A stretch of DNA of 64,000 bases from a virus. Taxonomy: Duplodnaviria; Heunggongvirae; Uroviricota; Caudoviricetes. The stretch lies in IMG/VR virus record IMGVR_UViG_646311923_000012; one strand, 5' to 3'. The position numbers are program-made. Below, in pieces: positions 6,001 to 9,000 of the stretch (its first letter is position 1; every line of letters begins with the position of its first letter).

Positions 6001-9000
6001 TATCAGAATTGTGATGTTTGGTATTGTGCGCCATCGGTTTTCTCTGCTGGCGCAGCAGGTGCCAGTTGTTCAAGCTGGCGTGCGGCAATATTGTCTCTGA
6101 TTTCTGTTGTCGTCAACAGGCAACGTGCTATCATCGAATGGTGTTCTATCCTACTCCGTGAGGTTTACCATGCGTACAACCCAACAATTCAGCATTACAT
6201 TAACTAACGAAATGGCTGACATGGTGCGCGCCCGTGTGGCTTCCGGTGCCTATGCTTCAGAAAGCGAGGTCATTCGTGAAGGGCTTCGCGCACTGAATGA
6301 GCGCGATAAAGCAATCGAAGCGTGGTTAACGCATTCAGCCGCCCCCTCTCTTGATTCTATCCGCGAAAATCCAAACAACGGACGCTCCATTTCACAGGTT
6401 CGCGCCGCGATTCGATCCGGGAAGTAATCTGCATGACATATGAAGTCATCATTACTCCTGAGGCCGAACAACAAATAATCAACCTGCACAGGTATATAAC
6501 GGAGAAAGCAGGGAACGTCATTGCTGACAATTATGCCAATGCGCTTCTTGATTATCTTGATGGGTTTTCTACATTCCCGCATCGGGGCAATAAACGCGAT
6601 GATATTCGCCAGGGGATGCGGGTAACTCATTTCCGCCACAGAACGATTATTGCTTTTGCCGTTGATAGCAGAAAAGTCTTTATTGTCGGTATCTATCATG
6701 GTGGGCAAAGTTATGAAACCGATTTCTTATAAACTTTTACCCACATCATTCCGGTGTTAGAATTAACCGTCCGCCCCCTCTCTTACTGGCGGATTCGTAG
6801 GCTATATAAATCAAAGATCCCGGCTCATGTTTATGTCGGGATCTTTTTTCGGCGATTTATCCCCAGCGGCAAATCGAATACACCACCAGCGCCACCGCCA
6901 TCGCAATTCCTACCGTTGTGAATGCTTCAGGCCAGGTCATCGTAAAATATCCTCCACGCTTATCAGTCCGTTCCGCTCCAGATAACTCATCGCCTTATCC
7001 GGTAATTTGCAGTCTGGCTTCGCTTTCCTCAGTTGCCAGGTTAACTGCTTTACCAGCATGGTTAACTCATCGACCAGACGCTGATATCCCACTGGTTTGT
7101 ATTCATGCAATTTACCGGCTGGCTCTGCTGCCAGCGATACCAGTGCGATTTCCAGAACAGCAATATCCATCTTATATGTGCGGATGATGTCATGGTCGAT
7201 TGTGCCCGGTATGCACAGTCTCTGTGTTTCAATAGTCTCCTCTGCGTGAGCTATTAACTGCTCTCTGGTAAAAGTCGTCATGCCGTAGCCCCTTCTTGAT
7301 ATTTTTCAAACCAGAACACAACTGGGTCAGATTTCATTTCAACCAATCCCATACGAACCAGCGCTTTGCCTTTCCCGGACGCAAGGAATTCACGACGACC
7401 ATCACTGATAATTCGCCGATAATCTTCCAGACTACTGCAATGCTTGTGCAGATTGCATGGGTGGCATGCCGGAACCATGTTGGATATATCGTCACGTTCC
7501 TGGTGAAGCATATTTCCATCAAAACGAATGACCGGTTTTACATGGTCTGCATGCCACTTTTCGCCAAGTTCGCAGCCGCAATAAGCACAGCGACCGCCGA
7601 ACTTCATGCGCAGCTCTGCACGTTGTTTTTTCGTCAGTGCCATATCAGCTTTCCTTATACGGATTAATTTTATTGTGCAGTGTGCTGAACGACGCCCACA
7701 CCACGTCGTTATACAATTCAATAACTGGCTCAATTATTTTCACGATAAACCAGACCAGTAATAGCGGGGGTATCGGTATCATCAACACGATAAATATAAT
7801 GAGAAACAAAAATTCTGTCGCTCTACTTTTTCTCGGATATTCTTTTCTGAATAATGTAGTCATTTCTTACCGCCCTTTCAGGCGGCCTCCTGATGTTTTG
7901 AGGGTGCAGAAATCCCTCCGGTTAAGGATTAAATTTTTAACTAAATTTAATTATTCAGGCGCGATAAGCTGTTCCGCACAATCCAGCAATGCTTCTGTCG
8001 CTTCCTTAAGCGTTACTGTATCGCTATCATCCAGTCCTGCAACTTTTTCGTACCTGACAAACGCCGCGCAAAGCTCGTTAAACAACCCCGCCCGTACTTC
8101 AGCCAGGAAAGCGTCGGTGGCCGGAGTTTCAGGAATCCGTCTCCTCATCCGTTCTATTGCATGATTGAACCCGAAATCTTCAGCAAGAGATACGTCATCC
8201 ATATTGTCATTGTCGTCCTCAATATCCCGTGGTTCTGGAATTGCAGACTTTATTACCGCATTCTCCGCCGCCAGCGCCACAAGATTAGCTTTCAGCTCTG
8301 CAATTCGTTTGTTTTGGGCTTCCCGTTCATCCAGTAGTGCCAGCGCAACATTTGGATTAAAAGCAGCAATAAATTCAGCGTTTGCATAAGCCTGAACATC
8401 TGTTTCAACCAGGCAGTTAACATGACATTCTGCAATTACGCCACCGGGCTCTCCTTTCCATTTTTGACAAACAAAAACTCCTGTTATATTCCCATGCTGA
8501 TTGCCCGATGTATGCCCTACGATGTAGCATCCTTTAGTTGCTTTCTCTGCTGCTTCACGCAGCGCCTGATAGTCAATCTCGCTCATTCATCGCCCCACTC
8601 ATCACAATATGCTTCGACCGGATTTTTTCCTGCTTCATAATCATCACGCCATGCTTCAGCATCAGCAGCACTGCCACCACGTAACTCTGCATATTCCATT
8701 AACAGTTCATGCCATTCTTCAAAACTGACGCTGTATTTAGTTGAACCAAAATCAGCCATTTTGTTCTTCCTCTTCGTCTTTTATTTCGTGATATGAATAA
8801 TTGCAGTAGTTAAAGAAAATATCTTTTGCTTCGTCATGTATTTCATCAGGCGTCGCATCATCATCCACTTCGAATTCATCCTCGAAATCTCCACCGGCTA
8901 TTCCCGTTTCAATAATTATTTTAAACTTTCGCATTTAACTACCGCCCTTTCGGGCGGCCTCCTGACATTAATCGTTGTGGTAACTCATGGCTTCATTTGC

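Follow-up and report, generated by a model that had tools for sequence, protein, structure and literature searches.

Canonical ParDE modules, represented by RK2 ParDE, Caulobacter ParDE1 (3KXE), the Mesorhizobium pair (5CEG and 6X0A), Mycobacterium tuberculosis ParDE1 (8C24) and Vibrio cholerae ParDE2 (7R5A), are two-gene operons in which the antitoxin gene comes first, the antitoxin ParD having a ribbon-helix-helix (RHH) N-terminus and the toxin of about 100 residues adopting the ParE fold. All these features are shared by a parD-parE pair found in a 64,000-nucleotide stretch of Caudoviricetes DNA (IMG/VR record IMGVR_UViG_646311923_000012), the whole of which is called the window hereafter; however, its toxin is 11–24% identical to any solved ParE and belongs to a narrow, phage-borne subfamily. 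The PaaR2-PaaA2-ParE2 system of Escherichia coli O157:H7 CP-933P (5CW7) likewise places a ParE-fold toxin in a lambdoid prophage of enterohaemorrhagic E. coli (EHEC), but it has three components, including PaaA2 and PaaR2, and replaces cI/rexAB in the immunity region (PMC9986795), whereas the parDE pair of the window has two genes and lies in a nin-like region. No third co-oriented gene is present within positions 6087–6856, the segment that we delimit below, and the antitoxin is an RHH ParD, not of the PaaA type.

We consider it probable that parDE is an autonomous type II toxin-antitoxin (TA) moron of 770 bp, placed convergently in the PR operon of a Qin/Rac-like prophage and filling a polymorphic slot of that operon, between a 27-residue open reading frame (ORF), orf27, and a hypothetical gene of 90 residues. 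As such it is an ordinary prophage TA moron and a new, uncharacterised member of the known ParDE family: the pair is already annotated in RefSeq, and PHROGs classes both genes as 'moron' toxin/antitoxin. A parDE pair in a prophage being a familiar kind of moron, the finding as stated matters little. Its points of worth are the subfamily as an inverted moron, the sharply bounded slot and orf27, the latter two being those chiefly worth following.

Identity and limits of the parDE cassette

The parD gene (6170–6427, plus strand) encodes an antitoxin of 85 residues with an RHH N-terminus, matched by PF03693 (E=1.6e-7; 32.1 bits for a cutoff of 21), TIGR02606 (53.8 bits for a cutoff of 46.2) and phrog_6494 (E=1.7e-56). 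It is followed on the same strand, after a gap of 5 nt, by parE (6433–6732), which encodes a toxin of 99 residues matched by PF05016 (E=4.5e-10; 40.4 bits for a cutoff of 23) and phrog_5232 (E=2.4e-43). An earlier annotation made from the DNA alone (hereafter the sequence-only reading) had placed a parDE module at 6107–6940. The pair is indeed present there, but position 6107 is merely the first TTG of the parD frame, at which the mechanically called ORF opens; the likely start is the ATG at 6170, which stands behind GTGAGG and coincides with the RefSeq start.

The RHH N-terminus of ParD matches solved ParDs in the PDB (3kxe_C (ParD1), 7b22, 8c24 and 5ceg). For ParE, a single-sequence search of the PDB yielded a weak ParE match alone, and with a profile built from 16 homologues the matches were confined to the ParE branch: 6x0a (4e-6), then 5ceg, PrpT (7ycs) and M. 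tuberculosis ParE1 (8c24). The AlphaFold2 model of ParE has a mean predicted local distance difference test score (pLDDT) of 82.7, and its best 23 Foldseek matches are all toxins of the ParE branch, ahead of YafQ, YoeB, RelE and HigB; the YafQ, YoeB and RelE matches begin at E ≥ 0.02. Because the profile matches and the fold searches agree, membership of the ParDE family is supported, with parD-parE predicted to form a type II TA system whose toxin falls in the ParE branch of the RelE/ParE superfamily. Neither gene is disrupted in any of the cassettes examined, and the pooled ratios of non-synonymous to synonymous polymorphism (pN/pS) are 0.18 for parD and 0.14 for parE.

The limits of the cassette were defined by comparison with related loci. 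In hok-type loci that lack parDE, homology to the window ends at 6079–6084 and resumes at 6856, the base after the TAA stop codon of orf27; in phage ArgO145 and in an O157:H7 locus, which have a different left flank, homology begins at 6087. As homology breaks at 6087 and 6856, the cassette is taken to extend over these 770 bp (6087–6856, plus strand). Inspection of its ends by eye disclosed no convincing direct repeats, and no mechanism of integration is therefore proposed. Some RefSeq records list a 43-residue ORF (WP_001342258.1; 6003–6134, minus strand) that extends across the left junction and into the parDE promoter; as it straddles a recombination boundary, it is unlikely to be a genuine gene.

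In the RefSeq annotation of the matching prophage of E. coli O26:H11, parDE is the sole exception to the common strand from the DUF1133 Q-like gene through the cro-like gene. This upholds the claim of the sequence-only reading that parDE is the only plus-strand unit in an otherwise minus-strand array. The same reading had described a self-contained moron, and this description is borne out by the promoter-like site, the terminator and the exact boundaries of the cassette, together with its absence from homologous loci: base composition apart, the cassette fits the definition of a moron as far as can be judged from its sequence.

A sigma-70 promoter-like site (TTGTCG, 16 nt, TATCAT, with an upstream TG) is predicted by consensus scan at 6107–6134 on the plus strand. 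Its −10 element and the TG are invariant in seven E. coli cassettes, and most of the region is also conserved in those of Yersinia and Salmonella. Repeat searching further identified an inverted repeat over the −35 element, CTGTTG-N4-CAACAG (6104–6119), which is a candidate ParD operator and whose core, TGTTG/CAACA, is invariant in the E. coli cassettes. At the other end of the cassette, folding and repeat searches located a bidirectional hairpin resembling an intrinsic terminator (6813–6852), with a T-run on the plus strand and a UUUGAUUU tail on the minus strand. Its stem of 10–12 bp (6813–6846) encloses a loop of 10–14 nt, is followed by TTTTTT and folds on both strands (z = −3.26 for 6766–6853), and in a diverged cassette (L007) one A-T pair of the stem is replaced by C-G on both sides, a compensatory change. 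The consensus scan missed this terminator because its loop limit is 8 nt. The cassette's own terminator, placed at 6816–6849 by the sequence-only reading, is thus recovered at 6813–6846 by folding, by repeat search and by the compensatory pair.

A second promoter-like site (TTTACC, 16 nt, TAGAAT, with TG) was noticed 3′ of parE, its −10 element being conserved in other cassettes. It is followed by a 5′ hairpin (6770–6793), an A/U-rich linker and the terminator hairpin, so that the whole (6736–6853, plus strand) has the layout of an Hfq-type small RNA (sRNA) of ~80 nt derived from a 3′ untranslated region (UTR). This is a candidate only: an Rfam scan of 5600–8000 at a permissive E-value returned nothing relevant, and a known sRNA in the parE 3′UTR is unsupported.

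The subfamily to which the pair belongs is narrow, being found in E. coli, Salmonella, Yersinia, Enterobacter and Erwinia with one additional match in Desulfovibrio, and it is phage-borne in every context examined. The Yersinia relatives (67–72% amino acid identity; Y. enterocolitica loci L145–L147, parDE at 4738–5294) lie between the recombination genes and SieB/cI, in the PL region, and the Salmonella relatives (67–72% amino acid identity; S. enterica loci L148–L150, parDE at 4738–5294) lie immediately downstream of Q. In both genera parDE invariably runs against the strand of the surrounding genes; its promoter and 5′UTR are recognisably conserved whereas the downstream regions are not. The inversion relative to the lytic operons is conserved in E. 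coli, Yersinia and Salmonella, and possibly reflects an arrangement by which lytic transcription turns off expression of the pair. The ParE/ParD subfamily appears to be specialised as an inverted moron of enterobacterial temperate phages.

An orphan parD with the same promoter was also observed, in E. coli O157:H7 6535WT (L006:3489–4550) and in ~45 Shiga toxin 2a (Stx2a) phage records. At 87% nucleotide identity overall, its RHH half is identical and its C-terminal half diverged; homology stops 14 nt into parE, and an unknown 90-residue ORF and a HigA-family antitoxin gene stand in parE's place. The sequence of this locus suggests module swapping inside the TA cassette.

Expression and possible roles of the cassette

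In a lysogen, in which the PR operon is expected to be silent, parDE would be transcribed from its own sigma-70 promoter and its transcription stopped by its own hairpin. The ParD RHH dimer would neutralise ParE and would probably autorepress the promoter; ParE, once freed, would most likely poison DNA gyrase, as canonical ParE toxins do. The benefit would be addiction, and hence retention of the prophage segment, possibly combined with resistance to other phages, as for other cargo found in the slot. Upon induction, antiterminated PR transcription would cross the cassette and its bidirectional hairpin in the antisense direction to reach Q, and in doing so would dampen parDE. More speculatively, lost control over ParE could feed into induction: a gyrase poison triggers the SOS response, and SOS induces lambdoid prophages (PMC10899753).

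Several observations weigh against this account. At 0.465, the GC content of the cassette is no different from that of the prophage at large (0.485) or of the flanks (0.447–0.521), and there is thus no compositional sign of foreign origin; an atypical base composition is typical of morons, albeit not obligatory. The palindrome over the −35 element is imperfect in the Yersinia and Salmonella cassettes, where no compensatory change accompanies the mismatches, and as it is not preserved there its assignment as a ParD operator is tentative. When the genes of the region were scanned with PADLOC-DB v2, ParD and ParE were unmatched, as were orf27 and the neighbouring 114-residue protein; the HNH endonuclease encoded nearby gave generic weak HNH-domain matches alone (PtuB or PDC-M01B). 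As regards the proposed target, some ParE-fold toxins act without gyrase, PrpT for instance acting on plasmid replication. PfiT, another exception among ParE-fold toxins, modulates Pf4 phage production (PMC7264888). Finally, experimental work on this parDE was not found in the literature, and searches on this pair, on the ArgO145 TA and on TA morons of the nin region gave nothing specific.

Addiction is not the only role to be considered. Elsewhere, the slot occupied by parDE carries RosmerTA (RmrA 6e-105, RmrT 5e-25), a validated defence system, as well as hok/sok, a RelE-type TA pair and a C5-methyltransferase locus, and the parDE cassette is predicted to be expressed independently of the lytic operon, like prophage defence genes. 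These occupants raise the possibility that parDE by itself serves mainly against phages, as a module of abortive infection, and that the slot is a defence hotspot and not an addiction site. According to a citation in PMC11364771, hok/sok of R1 excludes T4, which counts in the same direction. However, PADLOC has neither a model nor a match for ParD and ParE, no report of phage defence by this subfamily was found in the literature, and Fraikin and Van Melderen argued that type II antitoxins decay too slowly to act within the time course of a phage infection (PMC10899753). We regard a primarily anti-phage role as conceivable but rather unlikely.

A function directed at the prophage itself strikes us as less likely again. 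In this case the cassette would chiefly regulate its own prophage, either through ParE/ParD-dependent control of induction or yield as with PfiT/PfiA, or through the hairpin, acting as a nin-type terminator that would leave Q expression dependent on antitermination. PfiT (9w3a) is among the best structural matches of the ParE model, and PfiAT binds a palindrome over its −35 element and limits phage production (PMC7264888); the hairpin, which folds on either strand, separates the early genes from the Q block, and the path from a gyrase poison through SOS to lambdoid prophage induction (PMC10899753) would provide a link to the phage cycle. Yet unrelated cargo (hok, RosmerTA, methylases) serves just as well in the slot, which argues that no particular cargo is needed for that cycle. 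The autonomous TA moron thus remains the explanation that we prefer.

The cargo slot, orf27 and the neighbouring genes

Positions 5700–7900 of the window are 100% identical to a prophage of many EHEC genomes (O26:H11 11368, O103, O45 and others), and positions 1–21154 match the prophage of O26:H11 11368 at 99.6%. From the RefSeq annotation of the O26:H11 match, the host element is a Qin/Rac-like lambdoid EHEC prophage, the rightward early operon of which lies on the minus strand of the window. The order of this operon is cro-like, YdaT, O-like, P, an ea-type array of small genes, parD/parE (inverted), the 90-residue gene, DUF968, RusA and DUF1133 Q-like, and the ea-type array comprises DUF1627, DUF977, DUF4406, Ea22-like, DUF4014, HNH and the 114-residue protein. 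The slot begins at the base after the orf27 stop and ends at the 90-residue hypothetical gene (phrog_1212; 5762–6034, minus strand), its conserved far border, which was identified by library match and locus comparison. This gene precedes DUF968 (YdfU-like; 4714–5760), RusA (4342–4701) and the DUF1133 Q-like gene (3803–4345), all on the minus strand. A phage record labels a homologue of the 90-residue gene as Rem; this identity was rejected, as BLASTP against K-12 Rem gave no similarity.

The slot is filled differently in related loci. In the Qin prophage of K-12, relB-relE-hokD-rem lies upstream of a homologue of the 90-residue gene and of ydfU, and in the second prophage of the window a copy of orf27 identical to the first is followed by a hok locus (55942–56322) in the same slot (55942–56406 with orf27, minus strand). 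Both equivalences, relBE in Qin and hok in the second prophage, had been anticipated by the sequence-only reading. The O157 loci, like the second prophage, carry hok and a BOF/YgiW-like gene; other loci carry hokD and RosmerTA (L005:900–3500); and in one strain parDE is accompanied by an extra gene and hokD and separated from orf27 by other cargo. In two IMG/VR contigs (L029 and L030), an inverted RelE (PF06296)/helix-turn-helix (HTH) pair lies within the 1.3 kb that follow orf27, and a hairpin directly adjoins the end of the ORF. Further IMG/VR cargo includes a C5 cytosine methyltransferase with a putative O-methyltransferase (Methyltransf_35), a LysR regulator with a membrane protein, and unknown small proteins; besides L005 and L029/L030, the loci listed with further cargo after orf27 are L068/L070, L063, L083 and L102. 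In K-12 MG1655 Qin, an unannotated stretch between ydfU and rem (L014:4245–4602) was also seen to be 83.5% identical to positions 5700–6051 of the window; as this stretch matches the region of the 90-residue gene, the far border of the slot exists in K-12, where it is unannotated as a gene.

Among the 112 IMG/VR loci with enough sequence downstream of orf27, the first feature encountered was hok in 36 and parDE in 14, the latter always inverted relative to orf27. In 26 loci it was the BP-4795-like ORF4-xis-int end of the PL operon, and in 20 a phage-plasmid gene. Four IMG/VR loci in which orf27 seemed to join the 90-residue gene directly were considered as 'empty slot' alleles and discarded, as they carry 0.7–1.3 kb of other cargo, which in two of them (L029 and L030) is the RelE/HTH pair; a truly empty slot was not found among the loci examined. 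Nor did the literature searches turn up an account of the slot or of orf27 as its border.

The border gene itself (orf27; 6857–6940, minus strand) is a conserved hydrophobic ORF of 27 residues, which closes the ea-type array, forms the fixed border of the slot and lies outside the parDE unit; it was recognised by its ATGA coupling, its Shine-Dalgarno (SD) motif and its conservation. On the minus strand, ATGA overlaps join the gene of the 114-residue protein with orf27 and the HNH gene with that of the 114-residue protein. The coupling of a 27-residue ORF to a hypothetical gene followed by an HNH gene at 7278–7643, as proposed from the sequence, was therefore found intact (6857–6940/6937–7281/7278–7643). 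The window holds two orf27 copies that are 100% identical, at 6857–6940 and 56323–56406 (both minus strand); they lie in different prophages and are ATGA-coupled to different genes, encoding the 114-residue protein and a DUF551 protein, respectively. More generally, the 84-nt orf27 is kept behind the ends of several unrelated upstream genes, each of which provides a GGAGG ~7–10 nt upstream and usually an ATGA overlap.

The conservation of orf27, which the sequence-only reading had named as a check, is extensive. The ORF occurs in 1633 of the 5426 complete E. coli genomes, with up to 7 copies each and 163 places on plasmids, and also in Stx phages. In IMG/VR, 114 of 120 copies are exactly 27 residues long, with 29 peptide variants, and an SD-like motif is present at 118 of 119. 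For the part of orf27 outside the constraint of the search pattern, pooled pN/pS is 0.40, compared to 0.83 and 1.73 in the other sense frames; it is 0.33 in a smaller, hand-picked set. Substitutions replace hydrophobic residues by hydrophobic residues, the grand average of hydropathy (GRAVY) of residues 7–24 being 2.13, and 2 of the 18 copies checked by hand are disrupted. The ORF also closes ea-type arrays that have xis-int or phage-plasmid genes, and no TA, behind them. It is unannotated in every RefSeq record examined; 84 nt is below the usual minimum length of gene callers. A literature search with the peptide string returned nothing. When GTDB species representatives were scanned with the pattern of its 5′ part, one Escherichia contig and two tiny contigs were retrieved, and orf27 looks restricted, at the stringency of this sequence scan, to phages of Escherichia and Shigella. 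The two tiny contigs that carry the orf27 5′ sequence, from Xanthomonas pisi (L022, 431 bp) and Acinetobacter idrijaensis (L023, 369 bp), most likely represent contamination of these non-enterobacterial assemblies by E. coli phage DNA, not true occurrences.

Taken together, orf27 is very probably a real small membrane-protein gene, as predicted from its sequence, and its product can be counted as a good candidate for such a protein of EHEC and Stx phages. It stands as the unannotated, base-exact start of a hotspot of TA and defence cargo in Qin/Rac-like lambdoid prophages and some Stx phages. We see an even chance that the slot with orf27, rather than parDE, is the object of interest at this locus. 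If this is true, orf27 would not only encode a genuine small phage protein but also serve in practice as an anchor from which lambdoid prophages can be mined for new defence or TA cargo.

Both genes upstream of orf27 on the minus strand are neighbours outside the TA unit: a hypothetical early gene of 114 residues (phrog_660; 6937–7281), which also adjoins hok elsewhere, and an HNH endonuclease gene of 121 residues (7278–7643; Pfam HNH E=2.2e-6; phrog_2118 E=8.8e-57). The sequence-only reading had asked whether parDE, the 27-residue membrane peptide and the HNH nuclease, together with the 114-residue protein, make up one abortive-infection or exclusion cassette. The association is recurrent: the parDE-orf27-114aa-HNH block is complete in 176 genomes, extended by DUF4014 it recurs in prophages with different Q genes, and among the IMG/VR loci the 114-residue and HNH genes lie upstream of 7 of the 12 parDE loci compared to 1 of the 36 hok loci. 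The block was also observed away from the interval between P and Q, in Stx2a phage ArgO145 (L015, 4248–6024), where parDE-orf27-114aa-HNH-DUF4014-Ea22 occupies the PL region near int and adjoins ORF6N and methylase genes. Because of this location, we propose that the ea-type array and the slot attached to it move as a unit between the two early operons, and since the recurring copies are 99–100% identical, physical linkage and recent common descent explain the recurrence.

Each component is moreover found without the others. The parDE cassette is present in 370 of the 5426 genomes, and orf27, which is coupled to a large variety of unrelated genes upstream, is ~4 times more widespread. The neighbours of parDE on the orf27 side are of at least five kinds: 114aa with HNH, eaa with DUF551, DUF551 alone, a 171-residue protein, and an extra gene with hokD. 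Thus at least four arrangements differ from the one seen here, and in IMG/VR the 114-residue and HNH genes are absent from 5 of the 12 parDE loci. Conversely, the 114-residue gene lies upstream in 4 hok loci, where it stands with orf27, and an identical HNH protein is encoded in a CPS-53-like prophage (L012) without parDE or orf27. The units are also on opposite strands and form separate transcription units, parDE being expected to be expressed in the lysogen and the others to belong to the repressed early operon. A single functional cassette is, in our view, very improbable; the shuffled neighbours and the absence of a strict gene linkage in related prophages point to independent modules. From their distribution, HNH, the 114-residue gene and orf27 are independent genes of the early operon, held near parDE by proximity and not as its partners.

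Beside the immunity region of the same prophage, the RefSeq annotation of the O26:H11 match also includes a HigB-family toxin gene with an HTH antitoxin-like gene (window ~14294–14958, minus strand, mapped from L001 with an offset of 14301) and, further on, a YdaT-family gene. As this pair is present besides parDE, the prophage carries at least two type II TA-like pairs.

Comparison with described systems

The parDE cassette can be set beside several known accessory elements. PfiT/PfiA of the Pseudomonas phage Pf4 (9W3A) is likewise a prophage accessory ParE-like TA system, and its operator palindrome over the −35 element (PMC7264888) may be compared with the TGTTG-N4-CAACA repeat described here. 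However, Pf4 is a filamentous phage of another host, the identity is 16–17%, and the effect of PfiT/PfiA on phage production was shown experimentally, whereas parDE is known here from sequence. The relBE-hokD genes of K-12 Qin and the prophage hok/sok loci occupy the same slot, upstream of the 90-residue gene and ydfU/DUF968, and relBE has reportedly been secondarily inserted into hokD (PMC6379469). These belong to other TA families and types and run with the phage operon, whereas parDE runs against it.

Like the morons described by Hendrix and colleagues, the cassette is a discrete unit with its own promoter and terminator, here predicted, and is flanked by genes that in relatives lie side by side or enclose other cargo. 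Finally, the slot shares interchangeable TA and defence cargo with the defence hotspots of P2 and P4 prophages (PMC9122126). As at least one catalogued defence system, RosmerTA, occupies it in other strains, the slot may be mined for TA and defence cargo in the same way as the P2 and P4 hotspots were.

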